Translations under genes and position numbers: made by a program | Notes under the pieces: model-generated | What the model was told of the DNA's origin: nothing | What the model saw: only the letters and a program-made list of their open reading frames with translations | Databases searched by the model: none | Shown: positions 10,696 to 64,000 of the stretch, one piece after another | Numbering within the stretch: position 1 is the first letter of the stretch | How the letters are laid out: each line of letters begins with the position of its first letter | Origin: a virus | Lineage: Duplodnaviria; Caudoviricetes | IMG/VR virus record: IMGVR_UViG_3300009183_004565 | DNA: 64,000 nt | Strand: one strand, 5' to 3'

Positions 10696-10944
10696 TTGCA
10701 AAAAAAGACTCGTAGCATACTTGATGAATTGGCACATTTACCAGTGTCGCGTGATCGCGAAAATCTGGTAGAAAGTAGAGCTACGCACGTAATTAGTGGG
10801 GCTATCAATCTTATTAATTATATTAAAGAAAATTATGATCAAGAGCAAGCGGCAGAATTAGAACGTAGACTTCTTAACAGTATCAGATCGCAAGATCCTG
10901 CAAAATTTAGCCGCGGTGTAAGGAGATTTAAGAATGATAATTAG
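10696..10944 (+). CDS. Hypothetical late protein
   Basis: Probable TTG start at 10696, downstream of AATAAATA (10667-10674); ORF-track start 10654 overlaps the previous gene. Confidence 0.6.
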   Translation: MQKKTRSILDELAHLPVSRDRENLVESRATHVISGAINLINYIKENYDQEQAAELERRLLNSIRSQDPAKFSRGVRRFKNDN

Positions 10945-11674
10945 CGAAGGCGGGAACGTATTTAAAGGTCCCAACAAAGAACCACTAACACAACGTATTA
11001 ATCGTGAGGATGTACCTGCTACCGTCAAGTGGCTTGAAAATGCTACCGGGCTAGCATTTCCTGAACAAACATGGTTGGGCACAACAGGACGCAAGTCAAG
11101 TTCCGGAGACTTAGATTTATCAGTTGACGAATCTAAATTGGACAAAGACACATTAGTACAAACTTTACTAGCCAATGGTGTAGATAAAAACAGTATTAAA
11201 AAGTCCGGTGATAGCGTACACGTTAAAACCCCTATTGCTGGCAATCCCAGTAACGGATTTGTGCAAGCTGATTTAATGTTTGGTGAACCAGACTGGCAAT
11301 CATTTAGTATGAGTGGATCTGCTGAAGGCAGTCAGCTGACTGGCATGAGCCGTCATATTATATTGGCCAGCATAGTCAGTGCATTGAACCCAGGACTCAA
11401 GTGGAGTTACAAAAACGGTCTAGTTGATCGTGTCACAAACACTACTATAGAAAACGGTAAAAGTCCAGCTACACTAAGCAAGATCACTGGTATACCTGCA
11501 GCCAAGTTAAACTCCGCAGATGATATTATTGACGCTGTTAGTAAACGACCTAACTATGCTCAACTAGTTGCGGCAGCAAGAGAAACACTGGCACAGAGTG
11601 ATATACAACTACCTGAAGCAGCGCCCGCACCGGGTACTGCAGCATGGTTTAGAACATATAGCGATAAGTTTTAA
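10934..11674 (+). CDS. Pol-beta-superfamily nucleotidyltransferase-like protein with short xxSE leader
   Basis: LGTTGRKSSSGDLDL resembles the hG[S/T]..D-x-D motif; third acid in VQADLMF; N-terminus MIISE. Confidence 0.55.
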   Translation: MIISEGGNVFKGPNKEPLTQRINREDVPATVKWLENATGLAFPEQTWLGTTGRKSSSGDLDLSVDESKLDKDTLVQTLLANGVDKNSIKKSGDSVHVKTPIAGNPSNGFVQADLMFGEPDWQSFSMSGSAEGSQLTGMSRHIILASIVSALNPGLKWSYKNGLVDRVTNTTIENGKSPATLSKITGIPAAKLNSADDIIDAVSKRPNYAQLVAAARETLAQSDIQLPEAAPAPGTAAWFRTYSDKF

Positions 11675-12786
11675 TGATATTAGATTTTATCAACATGCTT
11701 ACCGAGGCAGCAGATCCTCGTACACCGCACCCCGAAGATGCTATCTTTCAAGGTAGCGCCGCTGCGGCACAACAAGTGGCCGGTCTTAAATCAGTGATTG
11801 CAAATCCTACCAATCTAACAATTAAGTGGGACGGTAAGCCAGCATTAATATTTGGAAGAGACAAAGACGGCCAATTGGCCGTCATGGACAAGTATATGTG
11901 GGACGCCGGTGTGTTAGCCAAGAGTGTGAAAGAATGGCAGACCTATGATGCTAACAAAGCATCAGGTAATCTGCGTGGTAGCTTATACGACCTATTAGAA
12001 GTCGTATGGCCAGGTTTAAATGCAGCAGTACAAGGTCCTGGGTTTTATTGGGGCGATTTATTATATGCCGGACAACTGCAACCAGTACAAGGCAAGTTTG
12101 TTTTTCGCCCTAACCTAGTAGAATATCGTATCCCGATTAGCAGTCCTCTTGGTAAACAAATGGCCGGAACTGTGGGCGGAGTGGTAGTACATCAATACTA
12201 TTCAGAACGCGGAGCAGCACCCGTACAATGGAATGGTAAAGGCTTAGGTACAGTACCCGGCGGTGTTGCAATTATAAGTCCGACTGCAGGAAATAGATTT
12301 GCATTAAAAACTCCGGTACAACAAGAACGAGCTGCAGATGCTGCACTACAAAAATATGGTGCCGCGGTCGATCAATTACTAAGCACCGTTCCGCAGAGTG
12401 CTAGAGATAGAATTAAAACATACTTTAATAAATTTATCACAGGCCAAACTAAAGAAGCATTACACGATTGGCTGGCAGCAAATGTCAGTGGCAAGCAATA
12501 TCAAGCACTAGCCGGCGATGATCATACAGGTAGTTTATTTGCACAAGATGATCAAGGACAAATTGTAGAAAGTCCAGGTTATGTAGGGTTAAAAGCAATT
12601 TGGAACAGCGTCTATGCTTTTAAACAAAATCTAGCAAAGCAATTGGCACCACAAGTGCAAGGATTGGAAGAGTATGTAAATGGACAACCCGCCGGGGAAG
12701 GATTTGTGTTTCCCACACCCAGTGGACTAGTAAAAATAGTAGATAGAGAAGTGTTTTCCGCAGCCAATTTTGCGAAAAATGGCTAA
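11674..12786 (+). CDS. Phage protein with ligase-like KWDG motif
   Basis: TIKWDGKPALIFG resembles motif I (KxDG) of covalent nucleotidyltransferases; later GDLLY and GEGFV; N-terminus MILDFINMLTE. Confidence 0.45.
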   Translation: MILDFINMLTEAADPRTPHPEDAIFQGSAAAAQQVAGLKSVIANPTNLTIKWDGKPALIFGRDKDGQLAVMDKYMWDAGVLAKSVKEWQTYDANKASGNLRGSLYDLLEVVWPGLNAAVQGPGFYWGDLLYAGQLQPVQGKFVFRPNLVEYRIPISSPLGKQMAGTVGGVVVHQYYSERGAAPVQWNGKGLGTVPGGVAIISPTAGNRFALKTPVQQERAADAALQKYGAAVDQLLSTVPQSARDRIKTYFNKFITGQTKEALHDWLAANVSGKQYQALAGDDHTGSLFAQDDQGQIVESPGYVGLKAIWNSVYAFKQNLAKQLAPQVQGLEEYVNGQPAGEGFVFPTPSGLVKIVDREVFSAANFAKNG

Positions 12787-12790
12787 CTGG

Positions 12791-12839
12791 TATAAATATT
12801 AACATGCGGTAACGCAAATAATTAAGGAGAATTAAAATG
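12791..12839 (+). promoter_or_regulatory. T4-type late promoter, GNRA hairpin and SD (copy 1)
   Basis: TATAAATA 12791-12798, TGCG-GTAA-CGCA 12805-12816, AAGGAG, ATG 12837. Confidence 0.8.
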
Positions 12840-13289
12840 GCAATCGGAGTTACAAGAGTAAGTGGTGATTCACAATTAGTGAACAATGTTGGTGACGGTT
12901 ACACCCTAAACGCAAATGCACAAATTATCAACACAGGTATTGCAAGCCCAATCAAGGCTTACAAAATTACTACATTAGGTATTACAGCTAACCTAGCAAA
13001 CGAACTAAAAGGTCCAAGTACAGCAGGAAAAGACCCAGCGGTACACACTTTGTTAAAAACTATTGCAGCCAATGCTACAGTTTTAGCATATCAAGTTGAT
13101 GCTACTGGTTCAACAGCACAACTAAGCGTTATTGTTGAGCGTAGCAGCTGGGGCAGCGATGCAGACCTACAAGCCACTATTCGTACACTAAGTCACGATG
13201 GTACAGCTGGTGCTAACATTGGTGCATACGGTAACGTATTCCCAGCTTTAGCGGCAGTTACATCAACAGGCGGTATCAAAATAGCTTAA
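12837..13289 (+). CDS. Small late protein, paralogue A (probably virion structural)
   Basis: Starts MAIGVTR like the next gene; has its own late promoter, strong SD and terminator. Confidence 0.65.
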   Translation: MAIGVTRVSGDSQLVNNVGDGYTLNANAQIINTGIASPIKAYKITTLGITANLANELKGPSTAGKDPAVHTLLKTIAANATVLAYQVDATGSTAQLSVIVERSSWGSDADLQATIRTLSHDGTAGANIGAYGNVFPALAAVTSTGGIKIA

Positions 13290-13338: not shown

Positions 13339-13387
13339 AATAAATATATACATGCGGTAACGCAAATAATTTAGGAGAAATAAAATG
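13339..13387 (+). promoter_or_regulatory. T4-type late promoter, GNRA hairpin and SD (copy 2)
   Basis: AATAAATA 13339-13346, TGCG-GTAA-CGCA 13353-13364, AGGAG, ATG 13385. Confidence 0.8.
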
Positions 13388-13747
13388 GCAATAGGAGTTA
13401 CAAGAAGCGCAGGTTATGCATTTACAGGCACAACCGGTGTGTTAAATGGTGTTCAATACACTGAAGTCGGGCAGAGTATTGTGCTTTATGTTGTTGCATC
13501 GTTAAACTTATCGTCTGAAGATGACGCAGCAGATGAAGCATTTGAAGCAATTATTCAACTTTTTCCACCTGTATTAGCATATTATTCTCATGCTACTACT
13601 GGTGCAATTAGCTTGATCTGTGACGGTGTTAACGCACCAGCAGCAAGTGCATTACAAACAGCACTGCAAGCAATTGGCACAAGAAAAGGCGCAGTTAACC
13701 TATCAAGTGCAACTGTCACCGAAGGCACAAGTTTTGTAGTTAGCTAA
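13385..13747 (+). CDS. Small late protein, paralogue B (probably virion structural)
   Basis: MAIGVTR N-terminus; similar A-LQxA-xxG segment to paralogue A. Confidence 0.65.
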   Translation: MAIGVTRSAGYAFTGTTGVLNGVQYTEVGQSIVLYVVASLNLSSEDDAADEAFEAIIQLFPPVLAYYSHATTGAISLICDGVNAPAASALQTALQAIGTRKGAVNLSSATVTEGTSFVVS

Positions 13748-35056: not shown

Positions 35057-35135
35057 TGCTATAATACAGGTATAAATAATTGTGTAGGATGCTTCGGGTC
35101 CTATAAAACTTGCTTATTTTTAAGGAGAAACTATG
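35057..35135 (+). promoter_or_regulatory. dnaK leader: extended -10, late promoter, UUCG hairpin and ROSE-like SD-occluding hairpin
   Basis: TGCTATAAT 35057-35065, TATAAATA 35071-35078, gtaggat-g-c-TTCG-g-gtcctat 35084-35104, CTTGCTT 35109-35115 complementary (bulged G) to AAGGAG 35122-35127. Confidence 0.7.
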
Positions 35136-37019
35136 AGTACAATCATTGGTATCGATCTTGGTACCACCAATAGCTGCGTAGCAGTAATCGAAAACGGAAC
35201 CCCAAAAGTAATTGAAAATTCAGAAGGCGCACGTACTACACCTAGTATCGTTGCCTATACTGCTGAAGAGATTATTGTGGGAGCCGGTGCAAAACGTCAA
35301 GCAGTTACCAATCCAAAAAACACAATCTATGCGTCCAAGCGTTTAATAGGGCGTAAATTTACGGAACAGGCAGTTCAAAAAGATATTGATCTCATGCCTT
35401 ACAAGATCATCGAAAGCGCGAACGGCGATGCATGGGTGTCAGTCAACGACACGGAACTAGCACCTCCACAAATCAGTGCCGAAGTGCTTCGCAAAATGAA
35501 GAAGACCGCAGAAGACTATCTGGGTCATGAAGTAACACAGGCTGTAATTACTGTGCCTGCTTACTTCAATGACAGTCAACGACAGGCAACCAAAGATGCC
35601 GGAGCAATTGCTGGACTAGAAGTATTGCGTATTATCAATGAGCCAACTGCAGCAGCATTGGCATACGGAGTCGATAAAAATGAAAAAGCTGATCGCAAGA
35701 TCGCTGTGTACGATCTGGGTGGTGGTACCTTTGATGTTAGCATTATTGACATTGCTAATGTGGACGGTGATAAGCAATTTGAAGTCCTTTCCACCAATGG
35801 TGATACATTCCTAGGCGGTGAAGACTTTGACCAACGCATCATGGATTACTTGATCACTGAGTTTAAGAAAGAGTCAGGCGTTGATCTTGGTCGAGACGTT
35901 ATGGCACTGCAACGTCTAAAAGAAGCTGCAGAACGTACCAAGATTGAATTGAGTAACAGCACACAAACAGATGTGAACTTGCCTTACATCACAGCAGATG
36001 CTACAGGTCCCAAGCACATGAACATCAAGATGACTCGTGCTAAACTGGAAAGCCTAGTTGATGAATTGATTCAGCGCAGTATTGAACCTTGCCGTGTTGC
36101 AATGAAGGACGCAGGTGTCGTAGCCACGGACATCGATGAAGTTATCCTTGTTGGTGGTATGACACGTATGCCACGGGTTCAGGAAGAAGTTGAAAAGTTA
36201 TTTGGACGAGCACCACGTCGTGATGTCAATCCAGATGAAGCAGTAGCGGTTGGTGCAGCAGTACAAGGTGCTGTACTAGGTGGTAGCCGTAAAGACGTTC
36301 TATTACTTGATGTGACCCCACTAAGCCTAGGTATTGAAACCATGGGCGGCGTGATGACGAAACTAATCCAAAAGAATACCACTATTCCTACCAAGCATAG
36401 CCAGGTATTCTCTACAGCCGAAGACAACCAGCCGGCAGTAACTATCAAAGTCTATCAAGGCGAACGCGAACTTGTACAATATAATAAAACATTAGGTGAG
36501 TTTAATCTAGAAGGAATTCAACCTGCTCGACGTGGTGTACCGCAAGTAGAAGTCACGCTGGATGTTGACGCCAATGGTATTCTTAAAGTAAGTGCCAAAG
36601 ATAAAAGTACTGGCAAAGAAAACCGGATTACTATCAAGTCGGACAGTGGTCTAAGCCGAGAGCAGATTGAAGAAATGATTCGCGATGCCGAAGCTAATGC
36701 AGATGCAGACACAAAGCAACGTGAATTGATCGAAGTACGTAACCAAGCAGATGCAGTTGTCCACAAGATTCAAACTGATATGAAAGAAGCGGAAGGCAAG
36801 CTTTCGGAAGATCAGACGAAACAAATAGATGAGGCAATTGCCAACCTCAACAAGGCAATAGCAGAAACAGACAAAGAACTAATTACCACCAAGGTATCTG
36901 AGTTACTTGTTGCTGCGAATATTATTAATGAACTACAACAGCCGCAGACTACAGAAGAACAGCCCGAGCCTAAGGCCGATGACAATGTGGTTGACGCTGA
37001 ATTTAAAGAAACGAAGTAA
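35133..37019 (+). CDS. dnaK: Hsp70 chaperone DnaK
   Basis: [50 protein letters not shown]-terminal VVDAEFKE. Confidence 0.99.
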
Positions 37020-37028
37020 AGAATATGC

Positions 37029-37096
37029 AGCCTGGATGCCTTCGGGGTCCAGGCTCATATATGTCATACTTGCTTATATGAAAGGAGAAAATTATG
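37029..37096 (+). promoter_or_regulatory. hsp20 leader: UUCG hairpin and ROSE-like SD-occluding hairpin
   Basis: agcctggat-g-cc-TTCG-gg-gtccaggct 37029-37055; CTTGCTT 37069-37075 pairs with AAGGAG 37082-37087. Confidence 0.75.
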
Positions 37097-37531
37097 ACAA
37101 CCTATATTACAACTTTTGACCTACCAACTCTAGCTCGCCACGCTGTTGGCTTTGATAGATTGTTTACTACTCTAAATCGAAACTTTGCTAACAGTAAAGT
37201 TAACGATAACTATCCTCCGCACAATATTGTGCAAATTGACGAAACGCATTATGCTATTCAACTAGCAGTTGCTGGCTTTGCCGAGGACGAACTAGAAATT
37301 GAATACAAAGACAATGTTCTAACAGTTAACGGCAATCAGAAACAAAAGGACGAACTCACATATCACTATCGTGGTATTAGTGCTCGCTCATTCACTCGTA
37401 GTTTCCCACTTGCTGATCACATGGAAGTACGTGGTGCTACTGTAGTAAATGGTATTCTTGCAATTAGTATTGAGCATATGATTCCCGAAGAGGAAAAAGC
37501 CAAGAAGATTGCAATTACCTTCACTAAGTAA
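37094..37531 (+). CDS. Small heat shock protein (Hsp20/IbpA family)
   Basis: GFDRLF, YPPHNIV, LAVAGF, YRGISARSFTRSF, NGILAI. Confidence 0.95.
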   Translation: MTTYITTFDLPTLARHAVGFDRLFTTLNRNFANSKVNDNYPPHNIVQIDETHYAIQLAVAGFAEDELEIEYKDNVLTVNGNQKQKDELTYHYRGISARSFTRSFPLADHMEVRGATVVNGILAISIEHMIPEEEKAKKIAITFTK

Positions 37532-37583
37532 TATAATGTAGTAGTAGGGGAGATTCCTTTCCCCTACTTAACTTGATGATGAT

Positions 37584-37895
37584 ATGAGCAAAACAGATAT
37601 TATTGTAAAACCAAAAATTCAAACTAAAACAAATATTCAACCTCCTGGGTTGTTTAATGTGATCTATTTAAACGACGATACTACTACAATGGAGTTTGTA
37701 GTTGAATCATTGAAGATAATTTTTCATCACAGTGAAGAAACAGCCGTTGAACTTACTCATAAAATTCATGAAGATGGGTCAACTGTAGTCAGTACATTAC
37801 CTTATGAAATTGCCGAACAAAAAGGTGTAGAAGCCACACTACTTGCTCGTACCAATGGTTTCCCTCTCAACGTTAAACTAGAACCCGCAACCTAA
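37584..37895 (+). CDS. clpS: ATP-dependent Clp protease adaptor ClpS
   Basis: VIYLNDDTTTMEFVVESL, IHEDG, YEIAEQK, GFPL. Confidence 0.93.
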   Translation: MSKTDIIVKPKIQTKTNIQPPGLFNVIYLNDDTTTMEFVVESLKIIFHHSEETAVELTHKIHEDGSTVVSTLPYEIAEQKGVEATLLARTNGFPLNVKLEPAT

Positions 37896-55444: not shown

Positions 55445-55470
55445 AAAAATGCCCTTCGGGGCATTTTTTT
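55445..55470 (+). terminator. Intrinsic terminator
   Basis: aaaaatgccc-TTCG-gggcatttttttt. Confidence 0.92.
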
Positions 55471-55510
55471 TGACAAAAACTTCTTAAATTCAAATACCAC
55501 TAAATACTAG

Positions 55511-56512
55511 ATGCGCTTACACGAAATTTCACAAAAGACCAAATATCGCCCAGAAGTATTCCTGGACATGGACGGTGTTCTAGCCGATTTCTTCTCAGAA
55601 TATGCTGTACTAGCCGGATTACCCCCAGGCAGTAGCTATAGGGAAATCCCCCCAGCTAAAAGTGATCCTACCTTGAACAAAATGATAGGCACTGACTTCT
55701 TTTACAGATTGCCTAAGTTTAGTACAGCGGACGCACTAGTGGCAATGGTAGTAAAGTTCTTTGGTGGATACAACATCTGCTCAAGTCCGTTACGTGGAGA
55801 CCATGAAAATTCAGGCGTACAAAAAACACGTTGGATTCAACAACATCTAAATCCACAACCCCAACACATTTACATAGAATCACGTAAAGAACGATATGCA
55901 TTACAGCCCGACGGTACACCCAATATCCTAATTGATGATCGTAAAGACAACATCATTAGATGGGAAGCGGCTGGCGGTGTGGGTATCAAGTATCAAGCAG
56001 ATGAAGATGGGCTAGATGTAATTGCTCGAGGTTTACGTCGTGCATTGGAAATATATAAAGGGCGGCGTGAGCAGGATCAGTTGCCGTTAACACCAAGTTT
56101 GGATCGTGGGGCTCCGGTAGCAACGGCCCAAGATCAACAGGTTAAAGAAAGTACTGCAAGCGATCATGAAGAACGAATTCGTCATTTTATGCAGTGGTGC
56201 AAGCATAAGTTAAAACTAGAACAAGAATTACCCGACATAGAATTCAGTGACGAAAAAGACAGTGAAGGCATGCACCATACCGGTTACTATAATGATCAAG
56301 AAGATAAACTATGGGTCTATACCGGTAATCGTAATCTAATAGATATACTACGCACAGTGGCACATGAATTTACCCATCGTAAACAAGATGAACAAGGTAG
56401 AATTGATCCCGATCAATCTTATCCCGGCAGTCCAATTGAACAAGAAGCAGATGCAGTGGCCGGATACCTAATGAAACTTTACGGTAAAGAATATCCGGAG
56501 ATTATAGAATGA
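55511..56512 (+). CDS. Fusion: HAD 5'(3')-nucleotidase plus zincin-like metallopeptidase
   Basis: FLDMDGVLADF and LIDDR (HAD); after the VKE linker, AHEFTH...EQEADA (HExxH); TAAATA 4 nt before ATG. Confidence 0.8.
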   Translation: MRLHEISQKTKYRPEVFLDMDGVLADFFSEYAVLAGLPPGSSYREIPPAKSDPTLNKMIGTDFFYRLPKFSTADALVAMVVKFFGGYNICSSPLRGDHENSGVQKTRWIQQHLNPQPQHIYIESRKERYALQPDGTPNILIDDRKDNIIRWEAAGGVGIKYQADEDGLDVIARGLRRALEIYKGRREQDQLPLTPSLDRGAPVATAQDQQVKESTASDHEERIRHFMQWCKHKLKLEQELPDIEFSDEKDSEGMHHTGYYNDQEDKLWVYTGNRNLIDILRTVAHEFTHRKQDEQGRIDPDQSYPGSPIEQEADAVAGYLMKLYGKEYPEIIE

Positions 56513-57207
56513 GGTCGGATGATTTTGTAGCAGGTAATGTAGATTATCACGAAGAACTAAGCCCAGCTGCCTGGGACGGCGACGAGCTACGTACCGACGT
56601 TCGTGTTCACTTGCTACGTGCCGCAAAGTTTTTTACTGCTTATCTTGAGATTCCAGGATTTCGAGTGTATGATGTTGTACTAACAGGCAGCATGGCCAAT
56701 TACAACTACACAAAATTTAGTGACTTTGATCTACATGTGGTCACACGTTACGCAGACCTAGAGTGTGATGATCTTGCTGAAGCATTTTATCGTGCTAAAA
56801 AATCTATATGGAATGATGCACATGACATTACTATTCGTGGTCATGAAGTAGAACTGTATGTTGAGGATGTTGACAATCCTCCAGTCAGTTCGGGCATGTA
56901 CAGTTTGTTGTCTGGCACATGGATCAAGGAGCCCGAATACTCCGCGCCTACAGTGGACAATACTGCCATCAATGCCAAGGTACGTGATCTAATTAAACAA
57001 ATTGATGTTGCTATAGCACAGGCCGATGACCCCGAAGACATCAAACGTATCACAGACAAACTGAGAAAGATGCGTCGATCAGGCCTAGATACTGCTGGCG
57101 AGTTTGGCGTAGAGAATTTAACATTCAAGATACTACGTAACCTAGGTTATCTAGATGCATTAAATACAGCATTCCATAATGAACAAGATCAGGATTTAAG
57201 TTTATGA
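56509..57207 (+). CDS. Pol-beta-superfamily nucleotidyltransferase
   Basis: LTGSMANY..SDFDLH and ELYVED triad. Confidence 0.75.
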   Translation: MRSDDFVAGNVDYHEELSPAAWDGDELRTDVRVHLLRAAKFFTAYLEIPGFRVYDVVLTGSMANYNYTKFSDFDLHVVTRYADLECDDLAEAFYRAKKSIWNDAHDITIRGHEVELYVEDVDNPPVSSGMYSLLSGTWIKEPEYSAPTVDNTAINAKVRDLIKQIDVAIAQADDPEDIKRITDKLRKMRRSGLDTAGEFGVENLTFKILRNLGYLDALNTAFHNEQDQDLSL

Positions 57208-60086
57208 GATATAAAGAATTCAATTTAACTGAAGATGAGTTGTTTGAGCTCAAAATGAGTCCAAGCAATCTTAAGAAGATGGCCGCAGAAACCGGTGCAG
57301 TGGCCGGCATAGAATTTGAAATGTATGTGCCCGGTGCTGCCGAAGCCGACGAAGACGATTACGAAGTTGAACCAGACTATGAAATGGACGAAAGTTTTCC
57401 AACTGGTCGTGGTTGGCGTCAGGAGGTGATAGATTTCTTTAGAGGTGGCGATTATGGCAGTACTCGCAGCACAATCCAACGTGCCCTTGATAACCTAGAT
57501 GAAGATTACTGGTCATGGAAGGATGAAAACTTTGAGGAATGGTTCAATGACAATGACTCATTGCTAGACAACTATCTCAGAGAAGAACTTCCACAGGACC
57601 CAGATGAAAGTGACGACGAATACACAGAACGATTGGGCAGCGACGATGAAGAAGTCCAACAGGCACGAGAGCGGGCCATGGAGCGAATGCGTGAGGAACA
57701 CCAAAGCGAAGATCAATGGGAAGATTTCTTACGAGATCAAGATATTGGATCCATGTTGGACTTCGGTAACCGAGAGAGTCTTGATTGGCCCTATGTCAAC
57801 TATCCCGAAAGCAGTGGTGGCAGCGTAGATATCAGTGATGTTGCTAGCGATTTTCAATCAGCAATTGGTCGCAGAGTCAAATCAGGTAGTTACCACAGTG
57901 GTGCTGGCAGTCAAACCGATAACTATCGGGTAGAACCAGATGGCAGTCTCACTGATCCCAACGATTCATATGATGGTGGCCTTGAATTTATCAGTCCTCC
58001 ACTGCCATTGGCTGAAATGTTATCAGACTTGGAAAAGGTAGTCAAATGGGCCGCTCGCAACGACTGTTATACCAATGACAGTACCGGACTGCACATGAAT
58101 GTCAGTGTACCTGGCTTTGAACTCAACAAACTTGATTATGTCAAACTGGCTATATTCTTGGGCGACGAATATGTATTAGATCAATTTGGTCGTGCCGGTA
58201 ACACCTACTGTGCCAGCGCCATGGAAAAGATTAAAAGTATTGCCAGGACTCAGCCAGATAAAGTCAAGACTATGCTGCAACAGATGCAGGGTAATCTAAG
58301 TGCTATGGCATCCAAGATTGTACACACTGGCACTACAAGCAAATATACCAGTATTAACACCAAAGATGGCTACATTGAGTTTCGTAGTCCAGGAGGTGAC
58401 TGGCTGGGAGAATATGCTGCTGATCCTGGTAAGATTACCAATACTCTACTACGTTTCACAGTGGCGCTTGATGTTGCCATGAAGCCAGAAGCATTTAGAC
58501 AAGAGTACATGAAGAAGTTGTACAAGACTTTATCACTGGGCGAAAGTGATGACACTATTCAATTCTTTGCACGTTATGCTGCCGGCGCCTTACCACAGTC
58601 GGCCCTGAAGAGTTTTGTCAAGCAAGCACAAATACAGCGTAAAGCTAAAAAACTACTGCCTGGCGCAATCAAAGGACAACAATTAATTCAGTGGCAGGCC
58701 ACTTCAGGTGCAGCTACCGCTACTGTTGTGGCACGTACCGAAGAGGAAGCAAGAAAGAAAGCTGCCTTCAATATTGGTATTCCGTTCACTGACAGTGCTA
58801 TAGACCGAATGGACATACAGCCCTTGGATCTTTATACCGGGCCAGTTAACAAATACAGAATCATTAGAGACTCTAACGGAGCCGAACTAGACACCATCGA
58901 AGGTGTTGACGAACGCGATGCTATCACAAACTTCCGAGTAACTAAACCCCATTGGACCACTGATATAACTGCTCGATTGGTAACACCAAATCAATCTCCT
59001 CCAGATTATCCGGCAGCGACCAGTAACACACCGGGTTCGTGGACCATCATGAATCAATCGACTCGTAGAATGTTACAAGGCGTTGGTGGCACATTCATTT
59101 ATGCCTCCCAAGCAGCAGCAGAGATAGCCATGGGTAACAACATACGTCGTGCAGATATCCGTATCATAAACACCGACAATGGTCAGGTCTATGACATTGA
59201 CGGACGTCCTACTAGATACAATACCGGCACAGAATCAAACACTTCAAGTCGTGATCAAGAGTTTACTGGCACTTGGGAAGTTGTAAGTAGACCCACTGAT
59301 GAAGTTGTATATACCATAAGTGGTATAGGTAATGCGGTTTCTGATGCAGAAAGATATGCAAATAGATGGGTTGATCAAACAGGATTTAGTGATCCTGTTT
59401 ATGTGCGTCCACAAATGCAGCCAAGATCCACGGGTGGCGGCGGATTTGACCGAGCACCACATACCAGCATATATCAATTGGTTGATAATAGAGATGGTAG
59501 AATATTACTAGGTGGCGAAACACGAACTTTTGCCTACACTGTTGAAATGGCTGGTCTTGCGATTCGTAGTTATGGTGTTCCTTCCGGCGATATTAGAATT
59601 ATTGATATGGCTACCAATCGTTCTTATAACATAGATGGTTCACCTGCTAATACATCTGCACCAGCAGCACAAACAGAACAACTTTACAATGTTAGATGGA
59701 CAGATGAAAATGGCGAACACGATGTAAATCGTAGAGCTCCTAATGCCAATGCTGCCATGGAGGATGTGCGTAACAGTTTAGAAAGCGGCAGATTTAGAGT
59801 AATTTCTATAGAAGCCAACCCTATAGGATCAAACACCGGTGATTCTACTCCTATTCCTGGTTCTACCATGGACCGAGTTCAACAACGAGCACAAGGATCG
59901 GAAAGTTTACCACCAGGTAATGCACGTTGGTTGATACTGGATCGCAATAACCAAGAAGTATATTCGTTTATTAATACCACAACACAAAGCGATGCCAATC
60001 AGTATGCAAGGAATTGGCTGCTTAATACTGCATCGGCTGAAGTTAGAGACCGCGGCCCATTTGATATATTACCGGTGTCAAGATGA
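57204..60086 (+). CDS. Putative amidoligase (COOH-NH2 ligase type 2) with acidic N-terminus and repeated C-terminal modules
   Basis: GIEFE, EPDGS, GLEFISPPL, STGLHMNVS, KYTSIN, YIEFRSPG; about 7 degenerate beta-beta-alpha repeats after residue ~490. Confidence 0.7.
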   Translation: MRYKEFNLTEDELFELKMSPSNLKKMAAETGAVAGIEFEMYVPGAAEADEDDYEVEPDYEMDESFPTGRGWRQEVIDFFRGGDYGSTRSTIQRALDNLDEDYWSWKDENFEEWFNDNDSLLDNYLREELPQDPDESDDEYTERLGSDDEEVQQARERAMERMREEHQSEDQWEDFLRDQDIGSMLDFGNRESLDWPYVNYPESSGGSVDISDVASDFQSAIGRRVKSGSYHSGAGSQTDNYRVEPDGSLTDPNDSYDGGLEFISPPLPLAEMLSDLEKVVKWAARNDCYTNDSTGLHMNVSVPGFELNKLDYVKLAIFLGDEYVLDQFGRAGNTYCASAMEKIKSIARTQPDKVKTMLQQMQGNLSAMASKIVHTGTTSKYTSINTKDGYIEFRSPGGDWLGEYAADPGKITNTLLRFTVALDVAMKPEAFRQEYMKKLYKTLSLGESDDTIQFFARYAAGALPQSALKSFVKQAQIQRKAKKLLPGAIKGQQLIQWQATSGAATATVVARTEEEARKKAAFNIGIPFTDSAIDRMDIQPLDLYTGPVNKYRIIRDSNGAELDTIEGVDERDAITNFRVTKPHWTTDITARLVTPNQSPPDYPAATSNTPGSWTIMNQSTRRMLQGVGGTFIYASQAAAEIAMGNNIRRADIRIINTDNGQVYDIDGRPTRYNTGTESNTSSRDQEFTGTWEVVSRPTDEVVYTISGIGNAVSDAERYANRWVDQTGFSDPVYVRPQMQPRSTGGGGFDRAPHTSIYQLVDNRDGRILLGGETRTFAYTVEMAGLAIRSYGVPSGDIRIIDMATNRSYNIDGSPANTSAPAAQTEQLYNVRWTDENGEHDVNRRAPNANAAMEDVRNSLESGRFRVISIEANPIGSNTGDSTPIPGSTMDRVQQRAQGSESLPPGNARWLILDRNNQEVYSFINTTTQSDANQYARNWLLNTASAEVRDRGPFDILPVSR

Positions 60087-60994
60087 GAGCTAGCGAATTC
60101 GTAACAGAAGCACCACGTGACGTATTCCACTTCGTTGGGCATAGTCCTGCTGTTCCTCGCCCCACTGGAAATTATTACAAATGGCGTGTGAGTCTCAGCA
60201 ATGGTCAATACTATCATGTTAGAGCCGGTGCACACACTGACTTATCAAAATTCCAACAATACTTCACACGTAAATGGGGCGCAGAAATGCCCGATGTTGA
60301 AGCAGTGAAAGCCGAACGTTTAGAAAGACTCAGCGAACAAGATGTAGATGAAATGGCTGGCGAAATACACGGCGGGGTCAGGAAAGCCTTGATGGACAAA
60401 GGCTACAAATATCTAGGCAGCGGTATTGACAAGCAAGCATACCTAGAGCCAGGTACCGGACAGGTGTTGATCATATTTGGCTATCGCAAAGGTCAAAAAG
60501 ATTTCAGTCCTGATCAACGTATGTTTATAAACTGGATAAACTACTGTAATAAGAATCAGTCTAACCCACATTTACCCAAGTTCTCAGGATTTGAAAGTTT
60601 CAAATTCCAAGGCAAAAACTATATTCAAGCAAGAATGGAACCACTGCAAGAGTTACCTGATGAAATAGGATATCTAGTTGGACATGCTGATGAAGTTATA
60701 AAGAAACGCAAAACAGATTACAAAAAAGAACTCAAAACAATGTCACAGTATGCTATGCATACGTTTAATGACGAAGGCGGCGGTACATGGTATGAGTTAA
60801 AAGACGTCGTAAAGCATTTGGGTGGTAAAAAGGCAGCAGCGAATTTACTAAACACAGTGTATGATGTCAAACGTTTTGGACGTAAGCAAGGATACTCAAT
60901 TGATTTACACAAAGGAAATTATATGCAACGTGCCAACGGTACTATTGTGGTAAATGATCCTTTTGTATTATGGTTGAGGGGGATGCTAGATTGA
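60083..60994 (+). CDS. Protein-kinase-like domain protein with N-terminal extra module
   Basis: YLGSG Gly loop, HLPKF, RMEPL, DLHKGN catalytic loop, VNDP. Confidence 0.7.
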   Translation: MRASEFVTEAPRDVFHFVGHSPAVPRPTGNYYKWRVSLSNGQYYHVRAGAHTDLSKFQQYFTRKWGAEMPDVEAVKAERLERLSEQDVDEMAGEIHGGVRKALMDKGYKYLGSGIDKQAYLEPGTGQVLIIFGYRKGQKDFSPDQRMFINWINYCNKNQSNPHLPKFSGFESFKFQGKNYIQARMEPLQELPDEIGYLVGHADEVIKKRKTDYKKELKTMSQYAMHTFNDEGGGTWYELKDVVKHLGGKKAAANLLNTVYDVKRFGRKQGYSIDLHKGNYMQRANGTIVVNDPFVLWLRGMLD

Positions 60995-61641
60995 GAGCTA
61001 CTGAATTCATAGCAGAAGGTAAAAATACTCCAGTCATAGTAGTAGATGTTCAACCTGCCTATGTACCGTATGGGCCACAAGTATGTGAACGCATAGTGCA
61101 ATTTGTAAATAATCAAACAGGTCCCGTATTAATGTTTGTCAATGCTGAACGAGATGGAATGACCAATGATACCATTGATGATGTATTGTCTTATTGGGAA
61201 GAAACAGCAGCAGAGAATGATCCTGATTGGTATGACGATAATCCATTTGCACCAAGAAGTCCTGTAAATTGGAATCGTTTTCATATAGTAGACAAAGGGT
61301 ATGGTTGGTTTAGAACTTGGATGGATCAAGGAGTGCAACCAAAATTCATAATACAGTTGATTCGTTACATGTATCAGCGTAGAATAACCGACATTCGTGA
61401 TGACATTGATGGTGTTTATGAATATATGACACACAATCCCACAGGAGGCCAAATTGTTGATTGGCAGGATTGGATGGAAGATGAATCCTTTACAATCAAT
61501 TGGACCAGTGTAGCACAACTAAAAAGATTTAATGGATCTTATATAGTAGGCGGTGGTAGAGATGAATGCTTGCGTGAAGTCGAATTACTCATGAATGCAT
61601 TCAATATAAAATATAGAAGAGTGGATAGTTTGATTTACTGA
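60991..61641 (+). CDS. Isochorismatase/cysteine-hydrolase-like protein
   Basis: VIVVDVQP and IVGGGRDECLRE; TTG start (TTGA overlap, gagggg SD) gives MRATEFIAE. Confidence 0.55.
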   Translation: MRATEFIAEGKNTPVIVVDVQPAYVPYGPQVCERIVQFVNNQTGPVLMFVNAERDGMTNDTIDDVLSYWEETAAENDPDWYDDNPFAPRSPVNWNRFHIVDKGYGWFRTWMDQGVQPKFIIQLIRYMYQRRITDIRDDIDGVYEYMTHNPTGGQIVDWQDWMEDESFTINWTSVAQLKRFNGSYIVGGGRDECLREVELLMNAFNIKYRRVDSLIY

Positions 61642-62258
61642 TGAGAGCTAAAGAATTTATCACTGAAATAGATCGTAGAGGATTCCTAGGAGCACTAGGA
61701 GCTGGTGCTATGGCTGCTGCTGGAGTTCCTGCCGAAGCAAAATCCAAGAAACCAGAGCCAATGGCATTTTTAAGTGCCCACATGGAAGCAGAAGAAATGT
61801 TACACAAGACTGCTCTAAATTCCGGAATGCGTGGTACAGAACTGGCACAATTTTTAGCACAATGTTACCACGAATCTGCCGGCTTTGCTCGTATGCACGA
61901 ATATGCTAGCGGTGCAGAATACGAAGGACGTCGTGATCTTGGTAATGTAAACCGGGGCGACGGGGTGAGATACAAAGGACGTGGCTTTATACAGATCACC
62001 GGTAGAGATAACTATCGTCGTGCTGGACAAGCCCTGGGCTTGCCACTAGAAGAACGACCTGGATTAGCCAGTAGACCTGATGTTGCTGCACGGATTGCTG
62101 TATGGTATTGGGCAAGTCGTGTTAGACCCAATGTTGCTAACTTTAATGATACTCGTGCAGTTACACAACGTATCAATCCCAAACTAAATGGGCTAGCTGA
62201 TAGACACGAAAACTTTAAAGATTATAAAAATATGTTTGTTGCAACAAGGACAAGATAA
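61641..62258 (+). CDS. GH19 lysozyme/chitinase with twin-arginine signal
   Basis: FLAQCYHES, YEGRRDLGN..GDG.RYKGRGFIQITGRDNY, INPKLNGL; N-terminal DRRGFLG + hydrophobic + AEA. Confidence 0.88.
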   Translation: MRAKEFITEIDRRGFLGALGAGAMAAAGVPAEAKSKKPEPMAFLSAHMEAEEMLHKTALNSGMRGTELAQFLAQCYHESAGFARMHEYASGAEYEGRRDLGNVNRGDGVRYKGRGFIQITGRDNYRRAGQALGLPLEERPGLASRPDVAARIAVWYWASRVRPNVANFNDTRAVTQRINPKLNGLADRHENFKDYKNMFVATRTR

Positions 62259-63499
62259 TGAGAGCAAAAGATTTTGCACTAGAAGCAAAGCCGCTAGCAC
62301 CACTAGAAATACCAACACCAGCACAGTCCACAGTTGAAAAATCTGTCAAAATGGCCAATCATATTGACAAAGTGCTTGACCAATACGAAATTAAAAAATC
62401 AATTATTCAACAAGAAATAGACCGATTAAAAGATCAAATTGAATCACTAAAGTACGGCCCACCCGAAGGATCAACTGTAACACAGAAAGGTCGGGGATGG
62501 GTCGGTAGAGATAGAGAAGGACACCCAATTGGCGGCGGTCCCGTGGACGAAGCATTTGACCAACCTTATGACATGAGCTGGGAAAAAGGTGAAGCTGGCG
62601 AAGATTACGATGCACTGGTTCGACTACCCGATGGGTCTAATCTTTCCATAATGTTTAACGAAGAAGGTCCTGGTCAGTACATGGTTGAGTTCTGGAGAGG
62701 CGCTGAACAATCAGTTACTGGCGAAGGCGACGCACAAAGAATATTTGCCACTGTGTTAGCAGCAATAGCCAAATTTATACAACAACATCAACCACAATCA
62801 ATCGTCTTTTCTGCACACAAAGAAGATGATCCGGAACAAAAATCAGACAGCCGCAGTAAATTGTACAATAGATTAGTGCAGCGGTATGCCGGTACTATAG
62901 GTTATAGTTATCGAAGTTGGGATACTGGAGACAGTGTACAATATGAACTGACTAGATTAAAGCCGGGTGTAGCGGAAAGCAGAGAAAACTTCAATGGTAT
63001 AGATATCTCTCTTGAAATACAGAAAGATGATGAATATGTCGATGATGAAGATTATGATAACCAGGTAATATATGTTACTGCTAGTAGCAACGGTAGAGAA
63101 TTGGGTCATGTGTTATTTGCGTTTGATGGTGAATATTTAATGCCGCAGGATTTAGAAGTTGAAGAACGCTTTCGTGGTCAAGGTATTGCTCAAACAATGT
63201 ACGATTATGTAAAGAGTAAAGGATATAAAATTCGCCGTAGTGGACAACAAACTGATGCCGGCGCTGGATTTTGGGACAAACACAAAGGTCAAGGACAACA
63301 TGTCTGGGAGCAAGGTGTAGTGGAAAATTTCGCTGATGGCAAGGTCAAAGGTAAAAGCCGTCCAGGTCGGGTCAAACGTGCAGGTGCCAGTTGCAACGGA
63401 TCAGTCACTGACCTACGTCAACGTGCAAAAAATGCATCAGGTGAACGAGCCAAAATGTATCACTGGTGCGCTAACATGAAAAGCGGTCGTAAGAAATAA
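62258..63499 (+). CDS. Multi-module protein including a GNAT acetyltransferase domain
   Basis: LEVEERFRGQGIA acetyl-CoA motif and AGAGFW; modules separated by PVDE, GVAE, GVVE. Confidence 0.65.
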   Translation: MRAKDFALEAKPLAPLEIPTPAQSTVEKSVKMANHIDKVLDQYEIKKSIIQQEIDRLKDQIESLKYGPPEGSTVTQKGRGWVGRDREGHPIGGGPVDEAFDQPYDMSWEKGEAGEDYDALVRLPDGSNLSIMFNEEGPGQYMVEFWRGAEQSVTGEGDAQRIFATVLAAIAKFIQQHQPQSIVFSAHKEDDPEQKSDSRSKLYNRLVQRYAGTIGYSYRSWDTGDSVQYELTRLKPGVAESRENFNGIDISLEIQKDDEYVDDEDYDNQVIYVTASSNGRELGHVLFAFDGEYLMPQDLEVEERFRGQGIAQTMYDYVKSKGYKIRRSGQQTDAGAGFWDKHKGQGQHVWEQGVVENFADGKVKGKSRPGRVKRAGASCNGSVTDLRQRAKNASGERAKMYHWCANMKSGRKK

Positions 63500-64000
63500 A
63501 TGAACCAATGCATTGATCATAATATGCATGATATAATTTCCCAATTGGACTTTGATCCTAAGAATCCTTTTGATCTAGATACTGATATTGTTCCCGAACG
63601 TTTTGTTCAAGGATTTTATAGTACATATTTGCTGAGTTGTTATACTGGTGATTACAATGCTACAATAGTTTACCCAGCAATCCTAAATAATTTAAAAACT
63701 AAACAATATGAACAATATATAGGATCATTTAATCAACAAGAAAGAGAACAGCTTTATCAATACTTTGATAAAATGATACAGGATGAAACAGAACACACTG
63801 ATCAGTTTTTAATTATGCTTAATAAAATAAATCCTCAAGACATTGACCTAAACTGTTTAAAACAAAACGCTCAATGGATGATAGAAAATACCAATCTAAT
63901 AAAGTTATTAGCAAGAATTTATGTTGCAGAATGTTACGTTTGGGTATCTTTTTTTCAAATATATAAAACTAGTACTAGTGATGATAAAAAACGTATTTTT
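63500..64000 (+). CDS. Ferritin-like (diiron) protein, 3' truncated (not in ORF track)
   Basis: Frame open from ATG 63500 to the window end; IQDETEH (D/E-E-x-x-H) and YVAE helices. Confidence 0.45.
   Translation, partial: MNQCIDHNMHDIISQLDFDPKNPFDLDTDIVPERFVQGFYSTYLLSCYTGDYNATIVYPAILNNLKTKQYEQYIGSFNQQEREQLYQYFDKMIQDETEHTDQFLIMLNKINPQDIDLNCLKQNAQWMIENTNLIKLLARIYVAECYVWVSFFQIYKTSTSDDKKRIF

Follow-up and report, generated by a model that had tools for sequence, protein, structure and literature searches.

Seven Overlapping Genes and a Shared N-Terminal Peptide

The operon analyzed here occupies positions 55511-63499 on the plus strand of a 64,000-nucleotide stretch of the IMG/VR virus record IMGVR_UViG_3300009183_004565 (Duplodnaviria; Caudoviricetes), which we refer to as the window. 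It belongs to an uncultured giant (jumbo) phage related to T4 and consists of seven open reading frames (ORFs), whose products begin, in order, with MRLHE, MRSDDFV, MRYKEFNLTE, MRASEFVTE, MRATEFIAE, MRAKEFITE, and MRAKDFALE. The peptide shared by these N-termini, called the tag below, resembles the capsid targeting sequence (CTS) of T4 and probably serves to bring a set of otherwise unrelated enzymes into the phage head. As the original prediction had stated, the genes are coupled by stop/start overlaps at all junctions, of 4 nt at 56509, 57204, 60083, and 60991 and of 1 nt at 61641 and 62258; an eighth gene begins at 63500, immediately after the stop codon of the seventh. The features of the locus are as follows.

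55446-55471, plus strand: GC-rich hairpin (tgccc-ttcg-gggca) followed by a T-run, read from the sequence, at the end of the upstream lipoprotein gene
55501-55506, plus strand: TAAATA box, candidate core of a T4-type late promoter, with the first ATG 4 nt further on
55511-56512, plus strand: gene 1, 333 aa, starting MRLHE, with a HAD 5'-nucleotidase-like domain (DMDGV) and a C-terminal HExxH zincin-like domain
56509-57207, plus strand: gene 2, 232 aa, starting MRSDDFV, nucleotidyltransferase (NTase)
57204-60086, plus strand: gene 3, 960 aa, with the 10-residue tag MRYKEFNLTE, an acidic region, Amidoligase_2, and a long repeat-containing C-terminal part
60083-60994, plus strand: gene 4, 303 aa, with the tag MRASEFVTE (60083-60109), an 85-aa N-domain, a flexible linker, and a protein-kinase-like domain
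60991-61641, plus strand: gene 5, 216 aa, TTG start, with the tag MRATEFIAE and an isochorismatase-like (cysteine hydrolase/nicotinamidase-type) domain
61641-62258, plus strand: gene 6, 205 aa, with the tag MRAKEFITE, a Tat-like (twin-arginine translocation) signal, and a GH19 muramidase/chitinase domain
62258-63499, plus strand: gene 7, 413 aa, tagged MRAKDFALE, with a coiled N-terminal module of 90 aa followed by a DUF6934-like domain and a weakly matching GNAT domain

The original prediction had assigned a common leader to all seven genes. This stands for six consecutive ones (starting at 56509, 57204, 60083, 60991, 61641, and 62258), which begin with MR[ASY]x[ED]F; gene 1 has only M-R and L-x-E in common with the others and resembles them loosely. 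The proposed check of the leader across the window bears this out, as MR..[ED]F occurs at the starts of ORFs of at least 200 aa only in those six genes of the whole 64 kb. The leader said to end in EFIAE, identical to T4, is likewise found in MRATEFIAE, provided that gene 5 starts at the TTG at 60991 and not at the ATG at 60970; the TTG start is backed by a ribosome site, GAGGGGGA, 8-15 nt upstream and by more than 100 homologues beginning at the same point.

Similar leaders had also been claimed at 10934, 11674, 15295, and 15993. We rejected these four as a set because the frequency of [ILV]-x-E within the first 12 residues equals the background: the pattern occurs in 12 of the 69 window proteins, compared with 11.3% in internal control stretches. 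Slight support exists for 10934 and 15295 only, whose orthologs in the related contig G003 begin MKLTE and MKLHE. The genes at 10934 (246 aa) and 11674 (DUF6267, 370 aa), together spanning 10934-12786, correspond to a single 650-aa ORF in G003 (300869-302821) and form another split/fused pair in the clade.

Conservation of the Tag in an Uncultured Clade

We searched IMG/VR with a degenerate DNA pattern for M-R-A-x-E-F-I-x-E; the counts given below are among the matches listed. The pattern matches more than 120 contigs, which is a lower bound, often two or three times per contig, and nearly every match heads a real ORF (146 ORFs with the tag, median 128 aa). The consensus is M-R-A-x-E-F-[IVL]-x-E. 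After removal of the tag before clustering, 156 tagged ORFs fell into 27 unrelated families, and tagged relatives match ADP-ribosyltransferase (ART; ADPrib_exo_Tox), ART-PolyVal (4e-6), Kinase-PolyVal (3.5e-4), and ParB_N. Complete genomes carry three to six tagged genes each, compared with none for a reversed-pattern control; the occurrence of the tag is far above what chance would give. In the set defined by MR..[ED]F only (62 ORFs), position 7 is V, L, or I in 39 and position 9 is E in 32, and several of the remaining ORFs have hydrophobic-x-Glu a few residues further on.

The synonymous codons of the tag vary freely (GCA/GCC/GCT, ATT/ATC/ATA, GAA/GAG) and the tagged starts are preceded by an ordinary Shine-Dalgarno signal; selection therefore acts on the peptide. 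Distant homologues of gene 5 hold the pattern with other residues (MKRFNEWLLE, MKISEILSE).

The commonest tagged family, with 92 of the 156 ORFs (loci L005-L119), is unannotated and about 125 aa long, its conserved features being a YRFGVA-type motif and the C-terminal sequence FKGYKRK. Its members come in tandem pairs (263121-263878 in G003; also in G001, G002, and G004) and adjoin a tail-fibre-like gene in G003.

Searches of cultured phages and of the literature gave little. Megablast of the 8-kb operon against INPHARED returned no match, an exact 35-mer taken from the window had none in IMG/VR, and neither the ~125-aa family nor the hydrolase at 60991 nor the kinase at 60083 had a tblastn match in cultured phages. 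The pattern MRxx[ED]FxxE was found zero times in PA5oct, Vibrio phage 2.275.O, Serratia phage BF, and a 735-kb huge phage; Sinorhizobium phage Phosso has two matches, one of them MRYNEFSKE. A text search of the literature for the tag strings returned no paper, and such a leader is absent from the term-matched passages of the polyvalent-protein paper and of a jumbo-phage review.

Similarity to the T4 Capsid Targeting Sequence

In T4, as we read from its genome, the internal proteins IPII and IPIII both start with MKTYQEFIAE, and the head proteins gp67, gp22, gp21, and gp24 start with MEGLIE, MLKEQLIAE, MNEPQLLIE, and MAKINELLRE, respectively. The first ten residues of IPIII suffice for loading into the head and the gp21 protease cuts after L/I-X-E, targeting depending, by mutagenesis, mainly on residues 4 and 7 and processing on residues 8 and 10 (PMC9026906); this agrees with what the original prediction had said of the T4 leader. 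F7, I8, and E10 of the T4 sequence align with the most conserved positions of the tag, F6, [IVL]7, and E9. T4 and the clade have in common a short N-terminal peptide on otherwise unrelated proteins (IPI-III and Alt in T4), a basic residue at position 2, a core of E-F-I-x-E with a hydrophobic-x-Glu end that follows the gp21 rule, head genes of the gp20/gp21/gp22/gp23 type, and a cargo that is highly variable between relatives. The internal proteins of T-even phages are diverse defence proteins with only the CTS in common (PMC3012670).

The differences are also clear. The tag of the clade has nine residues, MRAxEF[IVL]xE, and that of T4 ten; the clade is one of uncultured jumbo phages with a major capsid protein (MCP) nearest the PA5oct, Serratia BF, and Vibrio 2.275.O types, not the T-evens. 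Its cargo consists mostly of large enzymes and multi-module proteins, whereas that of T4 consists of small basic inhibitors, and its enzymes, known here from their genes alone, occur either as separate tagged genes or as parts of giant fusions.

A protease of the gp21 type, whose location had been proposed as a check, is encoded in relatives of the window: a Peptidase_S77 (gp21) gene was found in all four near-complete tag-bearing contigs (340-525 kb) and in three of five large fragments. In the same four contigs a Gp23 capsid gene (E about 1e-99) adjoins the protease, and in G003 the head genes are ordered as in T4, with portal, two small core-type proteins, protease, scaffold, and MCP. The MCP is closest to those of the cultured jumbo phages Phosso, Vibrio 2.275.O, PA5oct, and Serratia BF (62-66% identity). 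The window and G003 share about 45 proteins in conserved order, at 40-75% amino-acid identity, and the window therefore belongs to the tag-bearing clade.

The proteases of phiKZ-type phages cut at the motif S/A/G-x-E. Those phages (phiKZ, 201phi2-1, and SPN3US) are likewise jumbo phages, in which ejection and inner-body proteins are processed after Glu by a gp21 homologue that has diverged; they differ from the present clade in this motif and in that the clade has a canonical gp23-type MCP. They are not known to have one N-terminal address peptide common to these proteins. Passages of the published accounts describe many of their head-internal proteins as cut at a three-residue Glu motif and ejected into the host (PMC9026906; PMC5694885, PMC7411985).

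Enzymes Encoded by the Operon

Most of the enzymes named in the original prediction were recovered, HAD, NTase, amidoligase, and GH19 by profile matches and the kinase and the cysteine hydrolase by their predicted folds; zincin and GNAT are weak matches. In gene 1 the HAD 5'-nucleotidase (phrog_2643, 3e-19) and the weakly matching HExxH zincin (phrog_87, 0.005) are separated by an internal V-K-E at residues 211-213, and the zincin part aligns with zincin segments of polyproteins encoded in G003 and in another relative, G005. The NTase of gene 2 (phrog_36119, 1e-50; NTP_transf_2, 6e-4) is the N-terminal domain of the same two polyproteins. Gene 3 (Amidoligase_2, 6e-9) is 83% identical to residues 784-1451 of the G005 polyprotein, where L-D-E and a short linker take the place of the tag; its homologue in the cultured Ralstonia phage RsoM2USA, RsoM2USA_26, starts with MKLIQKLSE.

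Gene 4 shows the kinase motifs K117, DLHKGN (residues 274-279), and NDP (residues 291-293), with D274, H276, N279, and D292 invariant or nearly so among homologues, and matches phrog_15752 (T7 gp0.7-like kinase) at 5e-6. Its linker contains V-D-E|M at residues 88-91 (about 60344-60355). In the AlphaFold2 model, the tag (residues 1-13) and the VDE|M linker (85-94) have predicted local distance difference test (pLDDT) values below 50 and form low-confidence, flexible segments beside the folded domains. A structure search with the model gave 50 top matches that are all protein kinases (Z 7.0-8.8, 126-160 aligned residues, within residues 96-303). The model thus confirms a protein-kinase-like fold and gene 4 is a predicted kinase, at the level of the fold only because the Z scores lie in the middling range.

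Gene 5 has 800 metagenomic homologues, and the tag or a close variant starts almost all of the 120 that were inspected. D19, K102, and C193 are invariant across 56 sequences and follow the Asp-Lys-Cys order of the triad. Its AlphaFold2 model (mean pLDDT 86.9; below 50 at residues 1-7, with the tag again disordered) had no significant match by Foldseek against the PDB, none with E < 0.019, whereas with the exhaustive aligner VIA-align the top 28 matches were all isochorismatase-like hydrolases (Z 7.6-9.9, root-mean-square deviation 2.7-4.8, 116-129 residues). An isochorismatase-like, Rossmann-like fold is thus confirmed for the model; a search of Pfam, also when relaxed, gave no match for this protein.

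The GH19 enzyme of gene 6 (Glyco_hydro_19, 6e-11; phrog_181 endolysin, 6e-42) carries a Tat-like signal directly behind its tag (61671-61745, within residues 11-33), with RRGFL, an Ala/Gly-rich h-region, and AEA; the match to Pfam TAT_signal (E 0.008, 16.6 bits) lies under the 22.7-bit cut-off. In the G005 ortholog (88% identity) the tag and the Tat-like signal are both retained. Gene 7 matches DUF6934 (3e-5) and, weakly, the GNAT family Acetyltransf_1 (1e-3), and has an internal junction P-V-D-E|AFDQPY at 62540-62569. Its G005 ortholog starts with MRAQEFIVE|AFDQPY and has a C-terminal Pol-beta NTase in place of GNAT.

Split, Fused, and Swapped Modules with Glu-Ended Boundaries

Domains that stand on separate genes in the window are strung together in the relatives. 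The 1652-aa ORF of G005 combines NTase, a basic Gly/Tyr-rich module, zincin, HAD, and amidoligase, and the 1087-aa ORF of G003 combines NTase, zincin, kinase, and a DUF6934-like domain. The boundaries tend to follow the hydrophobic-x-Glu pattern. Among 72 homologues of gene 4 the first residue of the kinase domain ranges in position from 9 to 279, and at the domain start, MAGEIH, the preceding residue (P1) is E in all 72 and the residue three before the junction (P3) is L, I, or V in 62. The DUF6934-like domain is preceded by IVE in G005, where it follows the tag, by VDE in the window, where the junction is internal, and by INE in the G003 polyprotein, where the boundary S-I-N-E|SLDQPY falls at the same place as the AFDQPY junction of the window. 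Cargo is also exchanged, as the tag and the upstream junction found at 60991 lead into a different cargo in G005.

A module of about 45 residues, with hydrophobic-x-Glu on both sides, is seen at residues ~236-280 of the G005 polyprotein and ~237-277 of the G003 polyprotein. It consists of a Lys/Arg run, a Tyr/Gly-rich stretch, and a Gly/Asp/Glu run, in that order, and stands directly after the tag in many tagged ORFs of IMG/VR (e.g., L021, L057, and L075). If excised, it would be a small basic peptide reminiscent of the internal peptides of T4.

Such fusions recall the polyvalent proteins described by Iyer, Burroughs, Anand, de Souza, and Aravind in 2017, which in the relevant passages are predicted to be packaged and injected, with autoprocessing by an embedded zincin proposed (PMC5512222). 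The passages list zincin, kinase, ART, GNAT, ParB-type nuclease, muramidase, and NTase domains strung together, and the G005 and G003 homologues are likewise fusions of several catalytic domains with a zincin. The window differs in that its domains are mostly on separate, individually tagged genes, and those same passages of Iyer et al. describe neither a CTS-like N-terminal tag nor gp21-type junctions. No window protein matched the PolyVal families of Pfam (MPTase-, Kinase-, and ART-PolyVal) at E values up to 1.

Transcription Signals

The hairpin at 55446-55471 appears to mark the operon as a separate transcription unit. A consensus scan for sigma-70 promoters and terminators found nothing above chance inside the operon, and it missed this hairpin. 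The TAAATA box at 55501-55506 is of a kind that is three times commoner on the coding strand of the window than on the other (43 compared with 15). In G003 the box stands 5-8 nt ahead of four genes (the portal gene, one small gene of the head module, the gene following the MCP, and the homologous polyprotein gene), and in G005 it stands 6 nt before the ATG of the polyprotein. Its position before head genes and polyprotein genes of relatives supports expression of the operon late, together with the head genes. The late timing claimed in the original prediction, for which the box is the signal, is among its weaker points.

At 55501, 40582, and 32806 of the window the box is separated from the start codon by only 4-8 nt that contain no Shine-Dalgarno sequence, and the same layout is found in G003 (L125-L142) upstream of 221603, 223387, 227595, and 67037. 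This suggests that many late mRNAs of the clade are leaderless or nearly so. Two tandem paralogs elsewhere in the window (12793-13289 and 13341-13747) both start with MAIGVTR and are each preceded by a near-identical cassette of TAAATA, about 20 shared bases, and a strong AGGAG site. They match no Pfam or PHROG family and may be abundant late proteins.

Homologues in Cultured Phages

Experimental evidence on the location of a homologue comes from the T4-like cyanophage S-CREM2. Its ORF156 (126054-126719) is homologous to the NTase of gene 2 (38% identity, 1e-43) and was detected in the virion proteome with six peptides by mass spectrometry; the virion list also includes ORF154 (a cytidylyltransferase), ORF155, and an APH/ChoK-like kinase (PMC10665884). 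ORF154 starts with MKNFSSFLTE and ORF156 with MKKLISE. The T4-like cyanophages S-CREM2 and S-CRM01 have virion-associated enzymes, as is predicted for the present clade, and the S-CREM2 N-termini end in hydrophobic-x-Glu; they differ in their leader sequences, and the paper contains no concept of a shared tag (PMC10665884). Other homologues of the cargo also have lineage-specific N-termini with the same ending, as in Maribacter phage Molly (MNLKTLVE) and RsoM2USA (MKLIQKLSE).

In Molly_1 (L144, 3917-8539), an unrelated flavobacterial phage, several neighboring genes have a shared leader of their own, MNLK[TS]LVE[ST] or MK..E[IL]KSL[VI]ES, and the gene homologous to the window NTase is among them. 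Leaders shared within a single lineage may be frequent.

Probable Capsid Targeting and Its Alternatives

We consider it reasonably probable that the tag is a T4-type capsid-targeting peptide, cut off by the head protease, on a payload of enzymes resembling polyvalent proteins. Given its likeness to the T4 peptide that loads proteins into the head and is then removed, the enzymes probably enter the virion and reach the host together with the DNA. At the start of each protein would stand a disordered tag of nine residues, M-R-A-x-E-F-[IVL]-x-E, that would bind it to the scaffolding core during prohead assembly, as the T4 CTS does. A gp21-type (S77) prohead protease would cut after the closing Glu of the tag and also at the [LIV]-x-E junctions between the modules of larger proteins, and the freed enzymes would remain in the head and exit with the DNA at infection. 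The payload of the window would then comprise the nucleotidase/zincin, nucleotidyltransferase, amidoligase, kinase, isochorismatase-like hydrolase, GH19 muramidase, and GNAT-type protein. As only the tag would be needed, cargo domains could be swapped, split, and fused freely between related phages. The steps of targeting, cleavage, retention in the head, and ejection, and the role of the enzymes in the host, are ones that we infer from the genes. For the leader as originally predicted, the T4-type head genes, the match in residues, the Glu-ended boundaries, and the virion homologue speak in favor; the first gene and the Tat signal of the GH19 enzyme fit it poorly.

Several further points weigh against this reading. 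The motif is short, its likeness to the T4 CTS is no proof of homology, and 11% of random 12-residue stretches of the window proteins contain [ILV]-x-E. Two of the seven genes in the operon (MRSDDFV and MRLHE) deviate from a CTS-like peptide of about 10 residues with an aromatic residue and an [I/L]-x-E end; the tag of gene 2, MRSDDFV, is degenerate and lacks the closing Glu, and MRAKDFALE of gene 7 has Ala instead of I, L, or V three residues before the Glu (P3). Ala3-x-Glu5 of the tag fits the phiKZ-type S/A/G-x-E as well, which makes the actual cut site uncertain. As for the kinase domain, the conserved Glu that precedes it may be a component of the fold and not of a cut site. The link between the window and the protease and capsid genes runs through syntenic relatives, the whole tag-bearing clade is uncultured, and among the cultured phages of INPHARED neither the tag nor any of the tagged families tested was found. 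The S-CREM2 authors caution that abundant enzymes may co-purify with virions (PMC10665884). Finally, a pure head-cargo model leaves unexplained the Tat-type signal straight after the tag of the GH19 enzyme, a signal that predicts export from the producing cell and not capture by the prohead; its tag is either the n-region of an exported lysin or a peptide whose removal unmasks the Tat signal.

That signal, with RRGFL, h-region, and AEA suited to Tat export and an endolysin-like role, is also an argument for the first alternative, that the proteins are late-made cytoplasmic or periplasmic enzymes acting in the producing cell (for example in nucleotide/NAD metabolism, cell-wall lysis, or protein modification) and are neither packaged nor injected. 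Their N-terminus would then be a regulatory, assembly, or pro-peptide, which might hold the enzymes inactive until the prohead protease or the zincin of the operon removes it; a zincin is indeed encoded both in the operon and in the polyproteins, and the autoprocessing proposed in the passages of Iyer et al. (PMC5512222) would suit this role. The co-purification noted for S-CREM2 (PMC10665884) fits as well, as does the finding that in G003 no tagged gene lies within the head gene module. We nevertheless regard this explanation as unlikely. It does not account for boundaries that obey the hydrophobic-x-Glu rule of gp21-type serine proteases, nor for the coincidence of the conserved tag residues with the targeting and processing residues of the T4 CTS. 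The tag is strictly N-terminal and disordered and heads 27 families among the matches listed, some with the ART and ParB-type domains that characterize injected proteins, and the GH19 of the lysis cassette in G003 is a different, separate gene that is untagged.

Less likely again is that the tag is recognized by another machine, as a degron or chaperone handle (for DnaK, ClpS, or an Hsp20-type protein) that sets the timing or stability of toxic enzymes. The window does encode, judging from an N-terminal reading, DnaK (35133-37019), small heat-shock-type, and ClpS-like proteins, and a cut after Glu5 would expose Phe, a residue of the ClpS N-degron (N-end rule, textbook). The acidic tag is unlike typical DnaK-binding peptides, however, and a handle of this kind leaves the [LIV]-x-E at internal domain boundaries unexplained; the only known system in the clade that matches is the T4 head pathway. 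The DnaK/Hsp70-, small heat-shock-, and ClpS-like genes lie in a row at 35133-37895, and the DnaK is 78% identical in G005.

Very improbable is a reading in which the peptide plays no part and the shared start acts as nucleic acid, enhancing the initiation of translation or serving as a recombination cassette by which genes are shuffled. In its favor, the codons after the ATG are A-rich (AGA GCA AAA GAA), the cargo swap between G005 and the window falls exactly behind the tag, and for the internal-protein loci of T-even phages there has been discussion of recombination at the conserved CTS, but the freedom of synonymous positions beside fixed residues largely refutes it, distant gene 5 homologues keep the pattern with other residues, the starts have normal Shine-Dalgarno sequences, and the shuffling of cargo is better taken as a by-product of a modular peptide tag.

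Meaning for the Phage Clade

Returning to capsid targeting, a wider form of this reading is possible and held by us only tentatively, namely that one label defines the injected proteome of the uncultured T4-related jumbo clade. Dozens of enzyme families (among them kinases, ADP-ribosyltransferases, nucleotidyltransferases, amidoligases, and nicotinamidase-like hydrolases) would share this label for loading, the head protease would release them from polyproteins where the joints end in Glu, phages would trade families through recombination at the label, and the injected GH19 muramidase, its Tat signal unmasked, would be re-exported by the host to the cell wall.

The principle is already known from T4; what is new, judged by the papers searched, is the clade, the consensus of the tag, its breadth, the enzyme cargo, and the interchange between tagged genes and polyproteins. 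If the tag works as in T4, the injected proteins of a widespread uncultured clade could be listed from sequence alone, and the resulting catalogue would consist of candidates, mostly unannotated, for enzymes of host takeover and counter-defence. It would also tie capsid targeting to the concept of polyvalent proteins and supply a second natural tag with which foreign proteins could be loaded into phage heads. T4 capsid targeting, seen in T-even phages with small inhibitors, would then also cover the large enzymes and polyproteins of jumbo phages.

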